A stretch of 64,000 bases of DNA from Steroidobacteraceae bacterium (GTDB taxonomy: Bacteria; Pseudomonadota; Gammaproteobacteria; Steroidobacterales; Steroidobacteraceae), in NCBI GenBank assembly GCA_046347045.1, contig JAXMGX010000002.1:136124-200123 (forward strand), read 5' to 3'. The notes beneath the pieces were generated by a model. The model saw nothing but the letters and a program-made list of their open reading frames with translations. It made no database searches and had not been told where the DNA came from. Within the stretch, counting starts at the first letter, position 1. Each line of letters begins with the position of its first letter. Position numbers and translations under genes: made by a program. This document shows positions 53,888 to 64,000 of this stretch, in pieces.

Positions 53888-55996
53888 TCATTTGCCGTGT
53901 GTGATGTCCTTGATCACATACGACGATACGTCGGCGATATTCTGCGAGGTCAGCTCATACCTGAACGGTGGCATGGTCTTGCCGCCGTTGGTGACGTGGT
54001 TCAGCACGGTGGCGGATACCTTCGCGGACGGGATGGTGGTCAGATTGGGACCGCCATTGCCGCCGGTGCCCTGCGCGCCATGACAGACCGAGCAGTTCTG
54101 CGCAAAAATGCCCTTGCCGGTCGCGGGATTGCCAACCAGCTTGGTTACGGGCGCGGGCGCCTGCGGCTTTTCGCCCGCATGGAGGATGGCGTGCCCACCT
54201 TTGCCCGCCGCCACCTCGCCCAGCTTGCCGTCCAGCGAGAACAGCCAGAAATTGTCGCCGTGCGCCGTGGCGGCCAGTGCATTGCCGCCGGCGTAGAACG
54301 CCACAAACTGCTTGCCCTTGTGCTGGAACACGGTGGCCACGCTGTTGGCGCCTGCGCCGGTCTGGAACTTCCACAGGTCCTTGCCGGTTGTGGCTTCGTA
54401 GGCGTGCAGCTCACCCGAGTTGGTGCCGACGAAGACCAGATTGCCGGCGGTGACAACCGAGCCTGAGTAGCAGGACGTCGGGTAACGCTTGGTCCAGGCC
54501 ACCTTTCCGGTGACGATGTTGAACGCCACGAAGTAGCCCGCGCTGTGAAAGCCGTTGCCGATGGCTCCGGTGGACCCGGTGTCGATGCTGACCACCCCAC
54601 CCGGCGCCGGCTGCGGGCGCTCCTGGGTTTCGGAGGTCAGGCCTGCCACGCTGTCCTGACCGCAAACAAAGAAGAGATTGTTGTTCGGGTCATAGCTGGA
54701 CGGCGGCCAGTTGGTACCCCCGGCAGGGCCCGGTGCCACCACGACCAGATCCTTCCAGAATGGCGTAAAGATGTCCTTCGAGACGATGGCCTTTTCAACG
54801 CCAACGACCTGCTTGACCCGATCGGCCTCCTCGGGCGTCGGCATATGCGTAGCGAAGTGCGGCAGCGAGGGAATGGGCTGCGTTGCAGAGGTTTTCTGGT
54901 TTGCGTCCTGCGGCACCGGCGTTTCGACGATCGGGTAGATCGGTTTGCCGTTGGTGCGATCGAGCAGATAGAGCCAACCGGTCTTGGCGGCTTCACCGAT
55001 GCCCTTCACGGGCTTGCCATTGAGGGTGGCGTCGAACAGCACCGTCGGACTGGGTGCGTCGTAATCCCAGATATCATGGTGCACCAACTGGTAGTGCCAG
55101 CGGTACTTGCCGGTCTTCAGGTCCAGCGCGACGATCGATGAGGCGTACAGGTTGTCGCCCTCGCGCTTGGAGCCGTCAAAGTCGGGCCCGGCGTTGCCGG
55201 TCGAAAAATAGAGCAGCCCGAGTTCGGGATCGACCGAGGGCGTCTGCCACACGGGCGCGCCGCCGTGCATCCACGCCTCACCGGTCTGGGGCCAGGTTTC
55301 GTGGCCCGGCTCGCCCGGGCCGGGAATGGTGTAGAAGCGCCAGATCTCCTTGCCGGACTTCGCGTCATAGGCCATCACGCGGCCGCGGGTGCCGTATTCG
55401 CCGCCGGCCGTGCCGATGATGATCCTGCCGTCCACATAAAGCGGCGCCGCGGTCAGGGAGTAACCCTGCTGCCATTCCACCACCTGGGTGGTCCAGACCC
55501 TCTTGCCCGTCTTCTGATCAAGGGCCACCAGCTTGCCGTCGAGCTGCCCTATGTAGACCTTGCCCTCTCCCAGCGCCACGCCGCGGCTGAGCCAACCACA
55601 GCAGACCGTCGAAATCGCGTTGTCGAGGCCGGCCTGGTATTTCCAGAGGATCTTCCCGGAGTCCACGCTGACCGCAAACACGTCGTCCGCACCGGTAGGA
55701 ACATAGAGAACGCCATCGTAGGCAAGCGGCTGCGATTCGGCCGAGTACTTGTTGGCGACGCCCGAGCCACCGAGGTGCGTCAGCCACACGCCTTTGAGCT
55801 GGTTGACGTTGCTGGCGTTGATATCCTTCAGCGGCGAATAGCGCTGGTTCTTCAGCGAACCGCCGTTGGTGATCCAGTTGTCGTGCGGCGCCTGGTTCAA
55901 CTGCTGGATCGAGAATGCCGGCGCAGGCACGATGGCGCTCTGGTTCGAGCCCGATTCGGCCGACCAGCATGCTGCTGGCGTAAGCTTCCCCGCCAC
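53888..55996 (-). CDS. PQQ-dependent quinohemoprotein alcohol dehydrogenase, 5' end replaced by IS sequence (signal peptide lost; probably non-functional)
   Basis: Eight-bladed PQQ propeller repeats and a C-terminal cytochrome c domain with CSVCH. The first 6 codons (GTG..ACG, 55996-55979) lie inside the IS3 left inverted repeat. Native sequence starts at ...PAACWSAESG. Confidence 0.85.
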   Translation of the reverse strand: MAGKLTPAACWSAESGSNQSAIVPAPAFSIQQLNQAPHDNWITNGGSLKNQRYSPLKDINASNVNQLKGVWLTHLGGSGVANKYSAESQPLAYDGVLYVPTGADDVFAVSVDSGKILWKYQAGLDNAISTVCCGWLSRGVALGEGKVYIGQLDGKLVALDQKTGKRVWTTQVVEWQQGYSLTAAPLYVDGRIIIGTAGGEYGTRGRVMAYDAKSGKEIWRFYTIPGPGEPGHETWPQTGEAWMHGGAPVWQTPSVDPELGLLYFSTGNAGPDFDGSKREGDNLYASSIVALDLKTGKYRWHYQLVHHDIWDYDAPSPTVLFDATLNGKPVKGIGEAAKTGWLYLLDRTNGKPIYPIVETPVPQDANQKTSATQPIPSLPHFATHMPTPEEADRVKQVVGVEKAIVSKDIFTPFWKDLVVVAPGPAGGTNWPPSSYDPNNNLFFVCGQDSVAGLTSETQERPQPAPGGVVSIDTGSTGAIGNGFHSAGYFVAFNIVTGKVAWTKRYPTSCYSGSVVTAGNLVFVGTNSGELHAYEATTGKDLWKFQTGAGANSVATVFQHKGKQFVAFYAGGNALAATAHGDNFWLFSLDGKLGEVAAGKGGHAILHAGEKPQAPAPVTKLVGNPATGKGIFAQNCSVCHGAQGTGGNGGPNLTTIPSAKVSATVLNHVTNGGKTMPPFRYELTSQNIADVSSYVIKDITHGK

Positions 55997-56027
55997 GTGG
56001 ACAGGTCATAGCTAGAGCTTTCTGGCA
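55979..56027. repeat. IS3-family left terminal inverted repeat
   Basis: CGTAAGCTTCCCCGCCACGTGGACAGGTCATAGCTAGAGCTTTCTGGC aligns to the reverse complement of 57130-57176 (14/14 identical at the tip, then GACAG, CTAGAG, TTTCTGGC blocks). Confidence 0.8.
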
Positions 56028-56050
56028 TGTTAATGCCCAGGAGGCTTGAG

Positions 56051-56317
56051 ATGAAGAAGTCGAAGTTCACCGAGACCCAGATTGTTGCGATCCTGAAGAT
56101 GGCCGATGCCGGGATGCCGGTGAAGGAGGTCTGCCGCAAGGCCGGGATCAGCGAGCCGACCTACTACGTCTGGAAGAGCAAGTACGGCGGCATGGAGGCC
56201 TCGGACCTGAAGCGTACCAAGGAGCTGGAGGCGGAGCTGTCCAAGCTCAAGCGCATGTATGCGGACTTGGCCATGGAGAACCATGCGATGAAGGACCTGA
56301 TCGCAAAAAAACTCTAG
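56051..56317 (+). CDS. IS3-family transposase OrfA (HTH)
   Basis: MKKSKFTETQIVAILKMADAGMPVKEVCRKAGISEPTYYVWKSKYGGME... is a typical IS3/IS407 OrfA with a leucine-zipper tail. Confidence 0.92.
   Translation: MKKSKFTETQIVAILKMADAGMPVKEVCRKAGISEPTYYVWKSKYGGMEASDLKRTKELEAELSKLKRMYADLAMENHAMKDLIAKKL
56305..56311 (+). promoter_or_regulatory. programmed -1 ribosomal frameshift slippery run (A7) joining orfA to orfB
   Basis: GCAAAAAAAC lies 4 nt before the orfA stop. orfB is in the -1 frame relative to orfA. Confidence 0.7.
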
Positions 56318-56367
56318 GGCCGGCCGCCAAGCGACAGGCGGTCGGCCACCTGGTCCAGACCCACCAC

Positions 56368-57162
56368 ATGTCGGTTGCCAAAGCCTGCAGCTGTGTCCGG
56401 CTGTCGCGCTCGGCGTACTACCGGCCACCTGACCACTGGACGGTGCGCGACGCTGAGGTCATCGCTGGTCTTGCCAAACTGGTTGAAGGGCGGCCCAACC
56501 GAGGCTTCTGGAAGTGCCGCAAGTTGCTGCGCCGCCAAGGCCACGAGTGGAACCACAAGCGAATCTACCGTGTGTACAAGCTCATGAGGCTGCACCTGCG
56601 GCGTGCGGCGAAACGGCGCCTGCCAAAGCGCGAGCGGTTGCCGCTGTATGTCCCGAGGCTGCCAGACAGCGTGTGGTCGGCGGACTTCATGAGCGACGCG
56701 TTGCTCTGTGGTCGGCGTTACCGCCTGTTCAACGTGGCCGACGACTTCAACCGGGAGGCGCTGCACATCGAGGTCGACACGTCGATCAACTCGGATCGCC
56801 TGGTGCGGATCTTTGATCGCCTGCGCAAGAGTCGTGGGCTGCCACAGATCCTGAGGACCGACAACGGGCCTGAGTTCCTGGGAGAGGCGTTCACGCAGTG
56901 GGCGAGGAATGCCGGAATGGCGATCCAGTACATCCAGCCCGGCAAGCCGAACCAGAACGCCTACATCGAGCGGTTCAACCGCACCTTGCGCAACGAGCTC
57001 CTTGACCAGCATCTGTTCGTCCGCCTGGAAGACGTTCGTGAGGCCGCCTACTGGTGGATGCTCGAGTACAACGAGGAAAGACCCCATGACTCGCTCGGCG
57101 ACATGACGCCGGTCGAGTTCGCCCAAGTGGCCAGAAACTCTAGTTTAGAACTGTCGCCTTGA
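56368..57162 (+). CDS. IS3-family transposase OrfB (DDE integrase core; expressed as OrfAB fusion)
   Basis: WSADFMSD...RTDNGPEF...NAYIERFNRTLRNE DDE/rve motifs. The frame is open upstream back to the A7 run. Confidence 0.92.
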   Translation: MSVAKACSCVRLSRSAYYRPPDHWTVRDAEVIAGLAKLVEGRPNRGFWKCRKLLRRQGHEWNHKRIYRVYKLMRLHLRRAAKRRLPKRERLPLYVPRLPDSVWSADFMSDALLCGRRYRLFNVADDFNREALHIEVDTSINSDRLVRIFDRLRKSRGLPQILRTDNGPEFLGEAFTQWARNAGMAIQYIQPGKPNQNAYIERFNRTLRNELLDQHLFVRLEDVREAAYWWMLEYNEERPHDSLGDMTPVEFAQVARNSSLELSP

Positions 57163-57176
57163 CGGGGAAGCTTACG
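57130..57176. repeat. IS3-family right terminal inverted repeat
   Basis: The reverse complement CGTAAGCTTCCCCGTCAAGGCGACAGTTCTAAACTAGAGTTTCTGGC matches the left end. Confidence 0.8.
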
Positions 57177-57342
57177 GCTTCGAGCGACTCGAGCTAGCTT
57201 TCCCGAAGTTGACACCCCTCGAAGCCGCACCGGCAATCGCAGATGATCAGATAAAGCTGAGGAAGGCGCGCAAGACCTAGTTGCGATCACGCCCTCGCAT
57301 TACCCCTACGAGGCGCTTAGCTAGGTACGACTGGATCGACAG

Positions 57343-58581
57343 CTATGCCTCGTATTCCTCCCCTGCACTATCCCAGAGCTTCTTAAATAGGGGCTGTAAA
57401 ACTTCACTGACATGGTTTGTCGGTTGCACCTTCTCAACAGAATGATAAATGCGACCATCTACAATCGGCCCCTGCAAACCCAATCCTTTCGGTTTCCGCA
57501 CTTTCAGGTAGAGGTTGTGGATATTCTCAAATCCAACAAACAGCGAAAGGTGGTCAAAGACAAAGCCACTCTGACGGTAGAAGGCTAGATAGTTCTCTAG
57601 CGCATCCGCAAATTGAGCGGACACCATGCCTGCAAGAATGACTTCCTTCTCACCGTCATGTGCAACCAACGCCTGATTGACGCCGACTAGCGCTCCCGTA
57701 TTCTTCCTAAGCTGAGAAACACAGAGGGCGCGATTTTGCTGCGGATTCGAAACTATGTCGCCTGTAATCACGCCATCTTGATTTCGCGACACCCACTGCG
57801 TCCCTCTGGGACCGAAGGCCCGCAATGAAAAGTGATCGTTTACAGCCAGTCCCATTAAGTCTCTAAGACTTTCCGTTTTTGTTCCTGGCGTTGGGCGAAG
57901 CTCGATGTATGCCTGCGGAGCTTCCCTCCATACCACCTCGCCCTTGGAGCCAACCCCTGGGAGTCCAGCATCTACATGAGCTATGACATGCCCATTGGGA
58001 TATCGCCCGGTATCGATCGACTCAAATACCGATCCGACCTTCCCTTTGCCTTCCCCGTCAACCTTGCTCTGACCTTCCGCTCGGGATGCCGCTGCACCGA
58101 GAGCCTCAGTAAGAGACTTTACTAGCCATTCCCTAACCTTCTTCCGCTCCTCCTGCGAAGCGCCCTCTCTCAAACAATAGGTGAGCGGCCATCGACGCGT
58201 CCGCAAATCGAACGGAAGCTCGTCCCTCTTTCCCGTAGCCTCGTTGAATAGCCCAACGATCCGCCTATCTCCGATTGCACGCAGCGCGTAACCCAGCTCG
58301 ATAAGCACGTTTGCATTAGGCGAGCATCGTCCTTCGTCACTTCTGTAAGTAATGCTGAGGTCTGGGCAGAAGACGGCACACGTATCTATCTTGTCAAAAA
58401 TAACTCGCGACACATCGGGCATGCCGGAATACCCCTGGGTGTCCTTATCTAGAACTAACTTGTCGTCGGAGTGGACGGACTGATTGACTTTCGCAATTGC
58501 CTTCTCCAGGCACGACTCGATAAAGGTGCGATTGGTATTGTTCTGAAGCTCACTTTGCCATGCGTAGAATACGGTCTTCAT
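57343..58581 (-). CDS. hypothetical protein: N-terminal TIR-like / nucleoside-2-deoxyribosyltransferase-like domain + unknown ~270-aa C-terminal domain
   Basis: Lower-GC ORF. N-terminus MKTVFYAWQSE..., NANVLIELGYALRAIGDRRIVGLFN, ELPFDLRTRR resemble the COG4271/PF10137-type TIR-like motif set (NV.FELGY ... PSD). The C-terminus is unrecognised. Confidence 0.75.
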   Translation of the reverse strand: MKTVFYAWQSELQNNTNRTFIESCLEKAIAKVNQSVHSDDKLVLDKDTQGYSGMPDVSRVIFDKIDTCAVFCPDLSITYRSDEGRCSPNANVLIELGYALRAIGDRRIVGLFNEATGKRDELPFDLRTRRWPLTYCLREGASQEERKKVREWLVKSLTEALGAAASRAEGQSKVDGEGKGKVGSVFESIDTGRYPNGHVIAHVDAGLPGVGSKGEVVWREAPQAYIELRPTPGTKTESLRDLMGLAVNDHFSLRAFGPRGTQWVSRNQDGVITGDIVSNPQQNRALCVSQLRKNTGALVGVNQALVAHDGEKEVILAGMVSAQFADALENYLAFYRQSGFVFDHLSLFVGFENIHNLYLKVRKPKGLGLQGPIVDGRIYHSVEKVQPTNHVSEVLQPLFKKLWDSAGEEYEA

Positions 58582-58620
58582 CGTGCACTCCCACGATGAT
58601 TCCTAAACAACCTATTCACT

Positions 58621-59590
58621 TCATTCCCTCTCCACTTCCGATCCAGCGAGCTCCCTTAGTGATGCCGCAGGACGCTCAGAACCTTTTTTGAGGTACTCAC
58701 TCACTGATAGACGAGCCGCCGCGCGACCAACATCTCCATGCCCCCAAAGGTTCCTTAGAATCTGCGTGATTGCCTCCGTTGGGTAGTCTGGCAACGATCC
58801 CTGAAGCATCAACATCCACAATTCATTCGCCCTAAGTGGATCACTCTCGCTGAGTCGCGCTAGGCTACGCAGCAACTCTGAGGAGTTGTGGTCTTCATTT
58901 GAATACGGCGCGACCTTCGCGAGTAGGGCCATACTATGGTCATCTAAGCGCTCGACAAATACTGACCACTTACACAAGTACGACGCCACAAGTCGCCCCT
59001 GTTTCGTAGAGACGTCCACTCTTTCGTGGATTGCATCCCAGAGGCGCAAGACCTTGGAGGTGAGCTCGGCGTCCCCTTCCTTTCTCAAAGTCCATACAAA
59101 CCAGGCCAATTGACTCATTTCGTTCGGCTTGGCCCTATTCAACAGATAAGCGAGCAAGCTCTCTGACTTATCTAGAGTTTCGAAATCGTTCACATAGGCA
59201 ATTACGATGTTCTGAATGACTTTGTCAGCCACCTTACTTTTTAGCGAAGGGTCGTCAAGCGCACGTACAAAGTCCCCGTGAACTTTCAGAAACTCGTACA
59301 CATCTGGATAGACTTGCCTCACATAAGAGTAGCCCTGCATCGCACAACGCCATAGATCATAGTGGTCGCTGTCAAATATTTGAGGCAACTTCTCGGTCAC
59401 CCATTCCCTCGACATGTACAGGAAGTTGGGCAGGTAATTCGCCACTAATGTTGAGAACTCGAAACGCCCATTTGCGCGATCGCGCAACTCGGCGTCGAAG
59501 TAGGGCTTGAAACGTTCCCAAATACGAGAATGCCCTGCCCCGGACCGATCGGCCAGGCGGCACGCCCTCAGTGTGAGATTGATCAGTGCC
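58621..59590 (-). pseudogene. 5'-truncated all-helical (HEAT/TPR-like) hypothetical protein; upstream part removed or displaced by IS21
   Basis: The ORF-track 401-aa ORF (58621-59826) crosses the IS21 end at 59591, so only about 323 C-terminal codons are native low-GC sequence. There are 39 nt between its stop and the downstream TIR-like gene. Confidence 0.65.
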
Positions 59591-59640
59591 TGTTGATTTG
59601 CGCCTAAAGCTGACCCGGGATTTGCATCCAAAGTTGACCC
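59591..59640. repeat. IS21 terminal repeat block (istB-proximal end)
   Basis: TGTTGATTTGCGCCTAAAGCTGACCCGGGATTTGCATCCAAAGTTGACCC contains two direct copies of the GATTTGC-N-TGACCC motif. Confidence 0.8.
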
Positions 59641-59663
59641 GCCTTGGTCGTTGTCAGTATCGC

Positions 59664-60439
59664 TCAGGAAGGGTTGGATTTGCCTGTTCGTCGCTCCTTG
59701 CGGGGTTGGGTTGAGCTGTTCTTGAACCGGTAGCTGTCGTTGCCGGTCTCGACGATGTGGCAGTGATGAGTGAACCGGTCCAGCAGTGCGGTGGTCATCT
59801 TTGCGTCGCCGAACACGCTGGCCCACTCCGAGAAGCTCAGGTTGGTGGTCACCAGCACGCTGGTGCGCTCGTAGAGCTTGCTGAGCAGGTGGAACAGCAG
59901 CGCGCCGCCCGTCTGCGAGAACGGCAGGTAGCCCAGCTCATCCAGGATCACCAGGTCAGTGCTGGCGAGACCTCGAGCCAGATGCCCACTGCGGTTCAGC
60001 GCCTTCTCGGCCTCGAGCTGGTTGACCAGATCGACGGTGGAGAAGAACCGCACGCGCAGTCGATGATGCATCACGGCCTGGATGCCGATGGCGGTGGCCA
60101 GATGGGTTTTGCCGGTGCCAGGGCCGCCGACGAACACGACGTTGTGGGCACTGCGCAGGAACTGGCACTCGTGCAGGGTCTTGATGAGCGCGGCATCCAC
60201 ATCGCTGTGCTCGAACCGGAACCCGGCCAGATCACGGTGCGCGGGGAACCGCGCCCCTTGAGCTGGTAGTTGACCGAGCGCACTTCGCGCTCGGCAACCT
60301 CGGCCTTGATCAGGTCTTCCAGTATCGGGCGGGCTTGATTGAACGCAGGTCCATGCTGGGCCGACAGGTCATCCACCGCCTGGGCCATGCCATGGAGCTT
60401 CAGGGACTTGAGGGTGACGGCCAAGGTATCAACCGACAT
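59664..60439 (-). pseudogene. istB: IS21 helper ATPase IstB, frameshifted
   Basis: The N-terminal part MSVDTLAVTLKSLKLHGMAQAV...YQLKG and the C-terminal part ...[10 protein letters not shown]...[11 protein letters not shown]...DELGY are in different frames. The shift lies in the AAGGGGCGCGG run at about 60250-60262. Confidence 0.85.
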
Positions 60440-61953
60440 GGCGATCTCCCAGCAGGTTGTCGTAGCGATCCACGTTGGCCTGTGGCTCTTCCTGCAATGC
60501 CAGGTGCGCCGGCGTGTGGATGGGCGCAGGCGCATCCGTGGCCAGCAGCCGGCTCAGCAGGTTCAGGATGTGCGGCTTGGAGACGGTGCCGGACTCCAGC
60601 GCCAGCTCCACCGCGCACAGCACGGCCTGCTCGTCATGGCGCAGCACCAGTGCGAGGATCTCCACCATCTCCCGATCCCCGCCCGGGCGCTTGAGCAGCA
60701 CGGCCTGCAGTCGCCGGAACCCGTCCGGGAACGTGGCGAACGGCGCGCCGTTGCGCAGCGCGCCGGGCTTGCGCTGGATGACGGCCAGGTAATGGCGCCA
60801 GTCGTAGATCGTGCGCGCCGCGTTGCTGCTGTGATCGCGCGTGAACAGCCGCGCATGCTCGGCGATGATCTGCCCTTCGGCCACCACGACGAGCCGGTCG
60901 GCATAGGCATGCACGCTCACGGGCCGGTTGGCGAAGGAGGCCGGGACGCTGTAGCGGTTGCGCTCGAAGGCGATCAGGCAGGTGGGCGAGACGCGCTTGG
61001 TGTCCTCGACATATCCGTCGAACGGCGATGGCGCGTGCATCAGGTGCGGCTGCTCCTCGGCGAGCACCTCGGCCACGGTGCGATGCGACTGCTCGGGATG
61101 CTTGATCTGGCTCCACTGCGCGATGCAGCGCCGCTGCAGCCAGTCGTTGAGCGCGGGCAGGTCCGGGAACCGGGGCACCTCGTGCCAGATGCGCGGCCTC
61201 GCATCGCGAACGTTCTTCTCGATCTGGCCCTTCTCCCAGCCCGCGGCCGGGTTGCAGAAGTCCGCATCGAACAGGAAGTGGGCGGTCATGGCCCGGAAGC
61301 GCGCGTTGACGGTGCGCTCCTTGCCGCGCCCGACCTTGTCCACGGCGGTCTTCATGTTGTCGTAGATGCCGCGCCGGGCACGCCGCCAAAGACGGCGAAG
61401 GCGTGGTTGTGGGCATCGAAGAGCATCTCGTGGCTCTGCTGCGGATAGGCCCGCAGCAGGAACGCACGGCTGTGGCTGAGCTTGAACTGCGCCACGTAGA
61501 ACTTGCAGCGCTCACCACCGATGACCGCCCAGTCCTCGCTCCAGTCGAACTGGAACGCCTCTCCCGGCGCGAACACCAGAGGCACGAACGTGCCGCGGCT
61601 GGTGCGCTCTGCCTCCTGCTGCCTGCGCTGCCACTGCCGGGCAAAGGCCGCCACCCGGTCGTACGATCCGCGATAACCCAGCGCCTGCAGATCCTGATAA
61701 AGCTGGCGCCAGTTGCGCCGAAGCTTGCGGCCGCGGCCGGCCTCGCGCTCCAGCCAGCAGGCCAACATGTCGGCAAACGGGTCGAGCTTGCTCGGGCTCT
61801 TGCGCTGCGGGTAGACAGGCTCCACCACGCCACTGGCCGGTACTTGCGGATGGTGTTCCGGGACAGCTTGGTGCGCCGGGCAATCTCGCGGATCGGCACC
61901 CCTTCGCGCAGGTGCCAGCGTCGAATAACACTCAATATCGCCACGTCGATCAC
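60429..61953 (-). pseudogene. istA: IS21 transposase IstA, two frameshifts
   Basis: GTG start, MIDVAILSVIRRWHLREGVPIREIARRTKLSRNTIRKY (HTH). Frame change at about 61843-61850, then the DDE core (FQFDWSEDW...), then a second shift in the GTGCCCGGCGC run at about 61370-61375 before RRGIYDNMKTAVDKV. Confidence 0.85.
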
Positions 61954-61984
61954 TCCAGAAATCTCCTGCCCCTGAGAGCAGGAT

Positions 61985-62058
61985 GGGGGTGTACACGTGG
62001 GTCAAAATTGGATGCAAATACCCCTTACAGACGGGTCAGTATTGGGTGCAAATCAACA
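61985..62058. repeat. IS21 terminal repeat block (istA-proximal end)
   Basis: The reverse complement TGTTGATTTGCACCCAATACTGACCCGTCTGTAAGGGGTATTTGCATCCAATTTTGACCC matches the other end. Confidence 0.8.
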
Positions 62059-63148
62059 TGCCGTTCGGCACGACGACGGCGGCGCGCGCCGGGCGGCCCG
62101 CCAAAGTCGGCTGGCGCTTGAGCTTGCGCATGATGAGTTGCAGGAACAGCAGCGCCGTTTCCGCCGTCTGGCGATCCTCGGGGAAGTTGCCTTGAATCCC
62201 TTTCTCTTCCTCCCCGCCGAAAGGCGGGTTAGTGAGGATCACGTCCACGCGCTCCTTCTCGCCGATTTCGGAGAGCCTGAAGCGCAGCGCGTTGCCGGGG
62301 TCGATCTGCGGCGCGTCGAGTCCGTGCAGCAGCAGGTTCATCTGGCAAAGAAGATAGGGAAGCGATTTCGGCTCGCAGCCCGCGATGGTCCTGGTCTGTA
62401 GCTTCTTGCGGTCGGCGACGGTCTTCACCTGTTTCTCAAGGTGGCTGTACGCCTCGACGAGGAAGCCGCCGGTGCCGCTCGCAGGATCGAGCACGGTTTC
62501 ACCAAGGTGCGGGTCCGTGACTTCGACCATGAAACGGACGACGGCGCGGGGCGTGTAGAACTCGCCGGAGTCTCCCGCCGCGTCGCGCATTTCGCGGAGC
62601 ATGGATTCGTAAAGCGCGCCTAGCGTGTGCAGCTCGTCGGACGACGTAAAGTGAATCCCGCCGACCTTGTTCACGATGTCGCGCAGCAGATACCCGCTCT
62701 TCATGCGGTTGTCGACGCCCTTGAACACGGTGGCGATCACGTCGCGGCGGTTGTCGCCATTGGAGCTTGAAAGCCCTCGCAAATACGCGAACAGGCCCGG
62801 CCCCTTCTTTCCGTCGGCCCGCACGGCTTCATCGTTGTTGATGAAGGCGAGAAGTTCGTCGCCGGTGATGCCTTGAGGGTCGGCAGCCCAGTCGCGCCAG
62901 CGACAGGGCTTGTCGATGGCGGGTTTGAACTTCTCGCCCGCGAGCTTGGCCTCCTCCTCGCGCTGCTGTTCGAGGTCGTCGAGGAATTTGAGGAACATGA
63001 TCCAGGTCAGGAGCGGCAGACGGTCGAGGTCGCCGTTCAATCCCTTGTCCTTGCGCATGATGTCGCGGGCGCTTTTGAGGAGGCTGCCGAGCATCTGCGA
63101 GGTGGTCATCGGGGCGGCGGCCTTGCCGCTCTTCTTAGCTTTGGCCAT
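62059..63148 (-). pseudogene. hsdM: type I restriction-modification DNA methyltransferase HsdM, 3'-truncated by IS21
   Basis: HsdM N-domain, AdoMet motif VLDPASGTGGFL and catalytic NPPFGG. The ORF runs into the IS21 end after ...AAVVVPNG, and the last 7 codons are IS-derived. Confidence 0.85.
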
Positions 63149-64000
63149 AGAGGAGTTCTTGCAGGTCGTTTACGGCTTGCCGGAGTTGTTCCGGGCCGCC
63201 GAAGAGCTTGATGATTTCGGCAGGCTGGCCGTGGGTTGAAATTGGTGGAACCTTGAGCACATCCGGCAGGAGGAATTGCGCGTCGCCGTGCTCCGCATAC
63301 TTTTCCAGCAGCTCGTCGAGTATCTGACGGGCTTCCGGGGAGAACTTCTCGAAGTAGTCCTTGCGCTCGGATTTGAGCCGCTGCGCCCGCTCACGGCGGG
63401 AGCGCAGCGGCGCGTTGAAGGCGAGATGACAGAGAAGGTCGAAGGGATCCGCCTCGATCTGTCCGGTCTGTTCGGCCAGCAGCGCGAAGTCGATACCGCG
63501 CTCGGAAAGGGCCGCGATGATTTCAGCGCGCTGCGTGGCATTCGACCAGCGCGAGCGCAGGTCGGCGGAAGTGGGTGCAATGGAGCGGACGCTCTCCGCC
63601 GCGTAATCGCTGTAGCGGACAACGCGAAGCTGGCGTCCGTTGGGGTCGAGCTCATGCACCAGGTGGGCGACGATCTCGACTTGGCCGCCGTCGAAGTAGA
63701 ACTTGCGCGGGGCTTCATCGCCCGGCGGCTCGATGATTCCACCCGGCTCATAGGTTCCAGGCTCTTCCGCAACTTCGAAGACTGTGTCTGTTGCCCCTAT
63801 GGTATTGCCCTCATCATCCACTCGATTCTCGGTGATAAGGACGGGATCCCCGTCGAATTCCGGGTCGGCGAACATGCGGGTTGCCGATCCGGTGTAGTCG
63901 AGGATGTTGAACCAGAGCTTGCCGTAGTCGTCGCGCAAGCGCGTGCCGCGCCCAATGATCTGCTTGAACTCGCTCATGGAGCCGACGATGCGGGCGAGGA
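63135..64000 (-). CDS. hsdR: type I restriction enzyme R subunit HsdR, C-terminal part (5' end outside window)
   Basis: Helicase motif VI QIIGRGTRL followed by an EcoEI-R-C-like C-terminal domain. The frame is open to the window edge. 14-nt overlap with the hsdM start. Confidence 0.85.
   Translation of the reverse strand, partial: LARIVGSMSEFKQIIGRGTRLRDDYGKLWFNILDYTGSATRMFADPEFDGDPVLITENRVDDEGNTIGATDTVFEVAEEPGTYEPGGIIEPPGDEAPRKFYFDGGQVEIVAHLVHELDPNGRQLRVVRYSDYAAESVRSIAPTSADLRSRWSNATQRAEIIAALSERGIDFALLAEQTGQIEADPFDLLCHLAFNAPLRSRRERAQRLKSERKDYFEKFSPEARQILDELLEKYAEHGDAQFLLPDVLKVPPISTHGQPAEIIKLFGGPEQLRQAVNDLQELLYGQS

Follow-up and report, generated by a model that had tools for sequence, protein, structure and literature searches.

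A split-DSR1 sensor pseudogene and a probably independent TIR-like candidate defense gene between two insertion sequences of a Steroidobacteraceae genome

Positions 57177-59590 of a 64,000-nucleotide (nt) stretch of DNA from a Steroidobacteraceae metagenome-assembled genome (contig JAXMGX010000002.1; the whole stretch is hereafter the window) lie between two insertion sequences (ISs) and harbor two open reading frames (ORFs), both of whose products are found at 100% identity as U1F39_00905 and U1F39_00910. A preliminary description of this segment proposed that the two genes, one encoding a helical protein and the other a TIR-like protein, constitute one undescribed defense system composed of a sensor and an effector. 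The likely explanation is that the upstream ORF is the dead stub of a split-DSR1 sensor gene, and that the downstream ORF is an independent, intact gene for a protein of 412 amino acids (aa) that would combine sensor and effector in one chain. No novel two-gene system of the proposed kind exists; what remains is one uncharacterized candidate single-gene defense family. The features on which this account is based are as follows.

57177-59590, no strand: low-GC segment between the ISs, probably a piece of a horizontally acquired defense island, delimited by GC content and the IS ends
58621-59590, minus strand: 3' remnant of a split-DSR1 sensor gene, a pseudogene of 322 codons and a stop, corresponding to residues ~614-933 of relatives of ~935 aa
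57343-58581, minus strand: intact gene of the 412-aa stand-alone protein, consisting of a TIR-like N-domain, a disordered linker, and a novel C-domain
58084-58581, minus strand: N-terminal domain (residues 1-166) with the fold shared by TIR domains and nucleoside 2'-deoxyribosyltransferases (NDTs), carrying the motifs FYAWQSE, DKDT, PNANVLIELGYA (with E95), and LPFDLRTRR
57346-58005, minus strand: C-terminal alpha/beta domain (residues 193-412) of a fold family that is not recognized, a putative sensor or regulatory domain

Composition and boundaries of the segment

The segment has a GC content of 0.523 compared with 0.653 in the remainder of the window. It is the single lowest-GC stretch (z = -6.6) when set against every 2414-nt window that does not overlap it (mean 0.655, sd 0.020, minimum 0.610), and the drop in composition first noticed at 57.2-59.6 kb is therefore a unique minimum. 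The GC content at third codon positions (GC3) is 0.56 and 0.59 in the two ORFs of the segment, compared with 0.83 and 0.84 in the flanking genes for a pyrroloquinoline quinone (PQQ)-dependent dehydrogenase and for HsdM, respectively. The edges of the segment coincide to the base with the IS ends, since the inverted repeats of an IS3-family element extend to 57176 and the terminal repeats of an IS21-family element start at 59591.

Several elements of the preliminary description hold. The segment is trapped between IS3 and IS21 and contains exactly two co-directional minus-strand ORFs (57343-58581 and 58621-59826) with 39 nt between them; both are on the same strand as hsdR and hsdM, neither resembles a housekeeping family, and the segment is foreign, defense-related DNA adjoining the remnant of a type I restriction-modification (R-M) locus. 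A scan of 57177-59590 for promoters and terminators revealed sites that are no more common than in shuffled sequence. The segment is probably an IS-eroded scrap of a foreign defense island that IS3 and IS21 have left over.

The upstream ORF is the remnant of a split-DSR1 sensor gene

The upstream ORF is a mechanical ORF of 401 aa, of which only 58621-59589 lies outside the IS21 element; the annotated ORF of 336 aa (P0121) has its start within the IS21 end. Residues 74-382 of the mechanical ORF match positions 905-1213 of the 1227 positions in the PADLOC Dsr1 model PDLC04166 (E 3.6e-48), and the helical protein was therefore wrongly described as being of an undescribed type.

A word-indexed homologue search with the fragment returned only proteins of 300-545 aa, while an exhaustive phmmer (HMMER) search yielded 927 matches, in which the nearest full-length relatives are 927-945 aa long and align with the fragment over their residues ~619-938. 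The fused forms (1227-1256 aa) stand further from the fragment than do those of ~935 aa. The best match, P0149 (939 aa), is 55% identical over residues 619-938, and its gene lies directly after a gene for a 309-aa SIR2_2 protein with an overlap of 8 nt. The end of the SIR2_2 gene overlaps the start of the sensor gene in L090 and L001. In L001, four consecutive ORFs tile the Dsr1 model at positions 6-301 (the SIR2_2 domain), 309-408, 520-627, and 704-1222; here the sensor gene that follows the SIR2 gene is split into three ORFs (L001:3415-7138), through either pseudogenization or indel errors in the assembly. The possibility that the fragment is a stand-alone protein of 300-545 aa is rejected because the L001 ORFs tile the Dsr1 model and because the exhaustive search yields full-length forms of ~935 aa; the short matches are contig-end or broken fragments.

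A metagenome scan for relatives of the sensor provided 80 further loci, giving 81 sensor loci in all. In 57 of these the sensor N-terminus is included and the upstream DNA runs to 950 nt or more, and in every one (57/57) a SIR2 gene lies directly upstream of the sensor gene, in a different frame, and ends at the sensor start. The arrangement in the nearest relatives (L090-L170, for example L090:2872-6613) consists of a SIR2 gene of ~306 aa and a sensor gene of ~935 aa. Because the SIR2 gene is upstream and in a different frame in all 57 loci, the nearest family of the fragment is a two-gene split form of DSR1.

Neither the SIR2 gene nor the N-terminal part of the sensor gene (~613 codons) is found in the window by tblastn with the L090 SIR2 protein and full-length P0149, and relocation of the missing DSR1 parts within the window is accordingly rejected. 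Without the SIR2 effector and the first two thirds of the sensor, both of which the window lacks, the DSR1-type system is dead here; the sensor fragment is a pseudogene stub, and nothing functional remains of the system. The preliminary description correctly held that the 5' end of the upstream gene had been cut off by IS21 and that the copy is probably inactive; only the last 322 codons are left. DSR1 brings about NAD+ depletion upon infection (bioRxiv 10.1101/2021.12.14.472415), an activity that is not expected of the stub in the window. The Dsr1 sensor has a TPR domain in common with Avs7 and recognizes the phage major capsid protein, and sensors of this type are combined with exchangeable effectors (2026 preprint, PMC12803255).

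Another sensor remnant is present at L132:3772-4794, where only residues ~584-936 are left and 3.7 kb of upstream DNA contain no SIR2 gene, a second independent truncation of the same sensor gene at a similar place. In L102:8829-13674, and also in L098, L108, and L149, a Schlafen/AlbA_2-type gene and then a type I hsdR come after split DSR1, and in L105:9053-10711 a GmrSD-type nuclease comes next. From these contexts it follows that split DSR1 is repeatedly embedded in R-M or defense loci, as it is in the window.

The 412-aa protein combines a TIR-like domain with an unclassified C-domain

The downstream gene is intact. A GGGAG ribosome-binding site lies 7 nt ahead of its ATG, and the alignment of the 412-aa product with homologues of 405-430 aa spans its entire length (100%). 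About 30 full-length homologues are available; they have 24 invariant positions, including E95, and the window protein keeps all 24 invariant residues. The AlphaFold2 (AF2) model of the protein has a mean predicted local distance difference test (pLDDT) score of 85, with mostly 84-96 in the N-domain, and places a disordered linker of ~25 residues at 171-192.

The AF2 model and Foldseek searches identify the N-domain as a flavodoxin-like TIR/NDT fold, in agreement with the TIR-like domain that the preliminary description saw in this protein. The best Foldseek matches are SPARTA TIR-APAZ (3.5e-5, 8i88_C), the SfSTING TIR domain (4.5e-5, 7un8), and an NDT (1.5e-4), and a probability of 1.0 is given to the TIR domains of SfSTING (7un8), SPARTA, and RPS4 and to NDTs (9emx, 8pqs, 6qai). 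Across the structural matches, the TIR domains of SPARTA TIR-APAZ, SfSTING, and RPS4/RRS1 are about equal to NDTs and DNPH1 (E 3.5e-5 to 1e-3). At the level of sequence, the only Pfam family matched by the 412-aa protein is PF10137, the TIR domain of CAP12/Pycsar effectors (E 0.0036). At E <= 0.01, PF10137 is matched by 16 of the 28 sequences of the 412-aa family (best 5.2e-5), and an N-domain relative, P0066, passes the Pfam threshold with 27.3 bits. There are also weak PADLOC matches of the N-domain to the TIR effectors of CBASS. Neither segment protein, nor the N-domain by itself, gave anything significant in sequence searches of PDB chains, and the searches of NCBIfam and PHROG gave no matches. 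Glu95 is invariant (28/28 sequences) and lies within PNxNVLIELGYA, in the part of the sequence aligned to the PF10137 core; it is a candidate catalytic glutamate of the TIR-like domain.

The C-domain is confidently folded and unclassified. When its 220 residues are modeled alone (AF2), the pLDDT is 91.8 and the predicted template modeling (pTM) score 0.89. A fold search against the PDB finds no match (the best, an AdoMetDC prozyme, has E 0.025 and a template modeling (TM) score of ~0.3), a search against BFVD gives nothing significant (best E 0.0029, TM 0.28), and profile searches of Pfam, PADLOC, NCBIfam, and PHROG reveal no matches to this domain. The top whole-chain Foldseek matches suggested a TIR-APAZ protein without Ago, a candidate that is rejected as the C-domain alone finds neither APAZ nor Ago-N. 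The C-domain is not APAZ because its confident model (pLDDT 91.8) has no APAZ match and because there is no conserved pAgo neighbor.

Relatives of the N-domain are encoded by 576 or more stretches of species-representative genomes and on 29 viral contigs. A widespread class of ~474 aa (P0046-P0120) carries the N-domain as FYSWQSDLPN...PNPNVLIELGYA...LPFDLRTRR and differs in its C-terminal part, which is mostly helical; in one member, P0090, PADLOC gives a weak match to the C-terminal region of its bSEFIR model (E 3.1e-7). Residues 1-174 align with this class at an hhalign probability of 100, and homology between the C-domain of the 412-aa family and that of the ~474-aa class is rejected (hhalign probability 0.6). 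Recurrence of the N-domain with unrelated C-domains is the modular pattern of defense proteins.

Genomic neighborhoods of the 412-aa family

Strong PADLOC matches beside members of the family include pAgo (1.5e-203, with Aga-TIR), SIR2-HerA (HerA 9.4e-177), and PD-Lambda-1 (9.5e-109); further matched neighbors are AbiEii/AbiEi, mad3 (MADS), a PARIS-like system, and Dsr1. In three loci (L086:1897-4467, L087:1616-4186, and L089:2-1845) a PD-Lambda-1 (SNIPE/T5orf172) gene precedes the homologue by 10-12 nt. The members of this subclade are ~51% identical to the window protein and have two downstream contexts, ResIII/Abi_alpha/SMC and SIR2-HerA, so that PD-Lambda-1 and the 412-aa homologue may be a recurrent pairing within the subclade. 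The locus L009:4758-11251 contains a gene for a 1720-aa STAND-like protein that overlaps the start of a distant 412-aa homologue by 4 nt; the STAND-like protein has weak PADLOC matches to PDC-M54A and Avs4.

Proposed mode of action

The fold, the conservation of the motif, the modular architecture, and the neighborhood are the grounds on which we infer the catalysis, substrate, trigger, and antiphage role of the 412-aa protein, which is most likely a stand-alone sensor-effector with the activity of an N-glycosidase, probably a NADase. The protein would act alone, with the C-domain keeping the enzyme off until a phage-derived cue arrives. The TIR-like domain, probably on oligomerization, would then, in a manner dependent on E95, cleave an N-glycosidic bond, with NAD+ as the most likely substrate, and depletion of the metabolite would stop phage replication. 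Substrate and product need not be the same as those of the known TIR NADases. We tentatively propose that the family could be a new single-protein antiphage system in which the C-domain senses a phage component and switches on a TIR/NDT-like N-glycosidase, and the same may hold for the wider N-domain superfamily, FYxWQSD...PNPNVLIELGYA, with its interchangeable C-domains.

Alternative explanations

The two genes could in principle be the helical sensor and the TIR-like effector of one undescribed defense system that IS21 has inactivated. They are co-directional, 39 nt apart, and alike in GC (0.52) and GC3 (0.56 and 0.59), and Dsr1-type sensors combine with different effectors (PMC12803255). 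The pair is nevertheless missing from the loci collected for either member. No homologue of the 412-aa protein is present in the 81 sensor loci (0/81), which include 51 whose downstream DNA extends for 1300 nt or more; the fragment has no homologue in the genome loci that the 412-aa family alignment retrieved (0/80) or in the metagenome loci of the closest 412-aa homologues (45-54% identity; 0/5). Absence of the pair from other genomes had been named beforehand as speaking against a joint system, and absence is what these 81 sensor loci and 85 loci of the 412-aa family display. Moreover, the partner of the sensor is SIR2 in 57/57 loci, and close 412-aa homologues lie behind the unrelated genes of PD-Lambda-1, a DUF1835 protein, and a STAND-like protein. 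Among 19 full-length genome loci the 412-aa family has no conserved neighbor, with no recurrence beyond two closely related contigs, and the sensor likewise has no conserved third gene after it, as at most 5 of 61 loci have one in common. The one partial exception is L021, in which a distant 412-aa homologue is near a Dsr1-like gene; this gene belongs to another clade, is convergent, and is ~850 nt away, an arrangement that co-location in a defense island would give. That these two genes are alike in GC agrees with their having arrived together as neighbors in a donor island and is no proof of functional coupling. A single sensor and TIR-effector system is hence very improbable, and the sensor stub and the 412-aa gene are in good likelihood unrelated, functionally independent neighbors.

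Two further explanations concern the 412-aa protein itself, and each is unlikely. The protein might be a portable accessory effector that is activated by, or backs up, whichever defense protein is encoded upstream. A co-directional gene of varying family precedes it at a spacing of -4 to +39 nt in the window (the Dsr1 sensor), L085, L086/L087, and L089 (DUF1835, PD-Lambda-1), the STAND-like gene of L009 overlaps the homologue start, and a promoter-like site of its own is not found in the window. However, many of the 19 genome loci have only a tiny gene, a divergent one, or none at all upstream of the homologue, the protein has a large, well-folded non-catalytic domain of its own, which is the usual site of regulation in single-protein systems, and no mechanism is known by which one effector could read such unrelated partners. 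Alternatively, the protein might have no role in immunity and be an NDT/DNPH1-type enzyme of nucleoside or nucleotide metabolism or salvage, or a toxin of a mobile element, located by chance in variable regions. The Foldseek matches to NDTs and DNPH1 are as good as those to TIRs, PNxNVLIELGYA is similar to the NDT motif with the catalytic glutamate, and some homologues are found amid metabolic genes. Such an origin is at odds with the patchy distribution of the family, the foreign composition and IS flanks of the gene in this genome, the strong defense systems that adjoin many homologues, and the swapping of the N-domain onto unrelated C-domains; in addition, the consistent sequence matches are to CBASS/Pycsar TIR effectors and not to the NDT families of Pfam.

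A stand-alone sensor-effector beside a dead DSR1 stub is the preferred explanation, and the following observations weigh against it. The PF10137 score of the window protein (17.7 bits) is under the gathering score of 24.7, and the N-domain is as close to NDTs as to TIRs, so that the substrate may differ from NAD+. Enrichment near defense genes was judged from strong PADLOC matches without a genome-wide background, and some homologues are found amid ordinary metabolic genes (L085, L088). In the window, and in all of the close relatives with upstream DNA (4/4), a co-directional gene precedes the 412-aa gene by at most 39 nt, and the protein may therefore depend on an upstream gene. The scan of the window found no promoter-like site for the 412-aa gene. 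Lastly, a 4-nt direct repeat, TGCC, is present on both sides of IS21 (59587-59590 and 62059-62062) and is compatible with simple insertion of IS21 into a pre-existing junction.

Insertion sequences and flanking genes

The elements and genes that flank the segment are listed below.

55979-57176, plus strand: IS3-family element with 42-nt inverted repeats at 55979-56020 and 57135-57176
56027-56317 and 56368-57162, plus strand: IS3 orfA and orfB, matching HTH_Tnp_1 (E 6e-22) and rve and rve_3
59591-62058, minus strand: IS21-family element with istA and istB (IstB_IS21, E 7.6e-61), terminal multi-repeats, and TG...CA ends
62059-63148, minus strand: hsdM, 3'-truncated at the IS21 end, matching positions 4-189 of 311 in the N6_Mtase model, and HsdM_N
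63135-64000, minus strand: 3' part of hsdR (EcoEI_R_C, E 2.9e-32), in a frame that is open to 64000 and an ORF that runs past the window end

The IS21 element interrupts both the sensor gene and hsdM, the native frame of which ends in ...AVVVPNG at 62059. The TGCC repeat looks like a target-site duplication, yet IS21 divides two truncated unrelated genes, hsdM and the sensor gene, that are mutually out of frame. The repeat can be read as marking a deletion junction that is older than the insertion, or as a chance repeat (about 1 in 256).

No matching 3-nt flank repeat is seen around IS3. The ORF of the PQQ-dependent quinohemoprotein dehydrogenase (53888-55996, minus strand) has its start codon within the IS3 inverted repeat (55979-55996), and an obvious signal peptide is not seen at its N-terminus; IS3 has probably removed the true 5' end of the gene.

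Implications for annotation and discovery

The helical ORF is to be annotated as the pseudogene of a DSR1-type sensor, and the pair is not to be entered as a new two-gene system. What is of value for discovery is the 412-aa family, whose TIR-like protein stands alone and carries a confidently folded C-domain of no recognized class. The N-domain superfamily to which it belongs is large, missing from PADLOC 2.0, and mostly under the thresholds of Pfam. Stand-alone TIR proteins were deliberately excluded from a recent systematic survey of TIR signaling, and the class is under-studied because it was set aside there (10.64898/2025.12.03.692087). As for the sensor, the split form is the rule among its nearest relatives and provides a natural separation of effector and sensor that could be used for studying the activation of DSR1.

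Comparison with known systems

The upstream ORF resembles DSR1 in that it matches the last quarter of the Dsr1 model, and its relatives combine the same helical sensor with a SIR2 NADase module. In contrast with the single protein of ~1230 aa that constitutes DSR1, the nearest relatives are encoded in two genes, SIR2 (~306 aa) and the sensor (~935 aa), and the window copy lacks SIR2 and ~613 sensor residues, with only 322 codons outside IS21.

The 412-aa protein shares its fold, and probably a central motif containing a conserved glutamate, with the CAP12/Pycsar TIR effectors (PF10137), such as SfSTING. It differs from them in falling under the gathering threshold and in having no STING, SAVED, or cyclic-nucleotide-binding domain; a CD-NTase or cyclase gene is not nearby, and the C-domain is unrelated to anything known. 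In the same way, the components of Thoeris, CBASS, and Pycsar (CD-NTase, cyclase, ThsA) are not matched by PADLOC in the immediate neighbors, and the 19 loci contain no conserved neighbor.

The SPARTA TIR-APAZ protein is similar in length (~420 aa), its TIR domain superposes on that of the window protein, and it is the top whole-chain Foldseek match (8i88_C, E 3.5e-5). The whole-chain superposition, however, is poor (root-mean-square deviation ~25 A, TM 0.24), the C-domain alone finds no APAZ, and none of the 19 loci reveals a conserved pAgo neighbor.

The stand-alone TIR-like NADases bSEFIR and DUF4062 'Swarozyc', the latter reported to be a phage-portal-activated NADase (10.64898/2026.05.01.722283), are likewise single proteins found in defense islands, with an N-terminal TIR-superfamily domain and a C-terminal accessory domain. 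The 412-aa protein would work in a manner similar to theirs; it has no DUF4062 or SEFIR match and belongs to neither family, and its C-domain is new.

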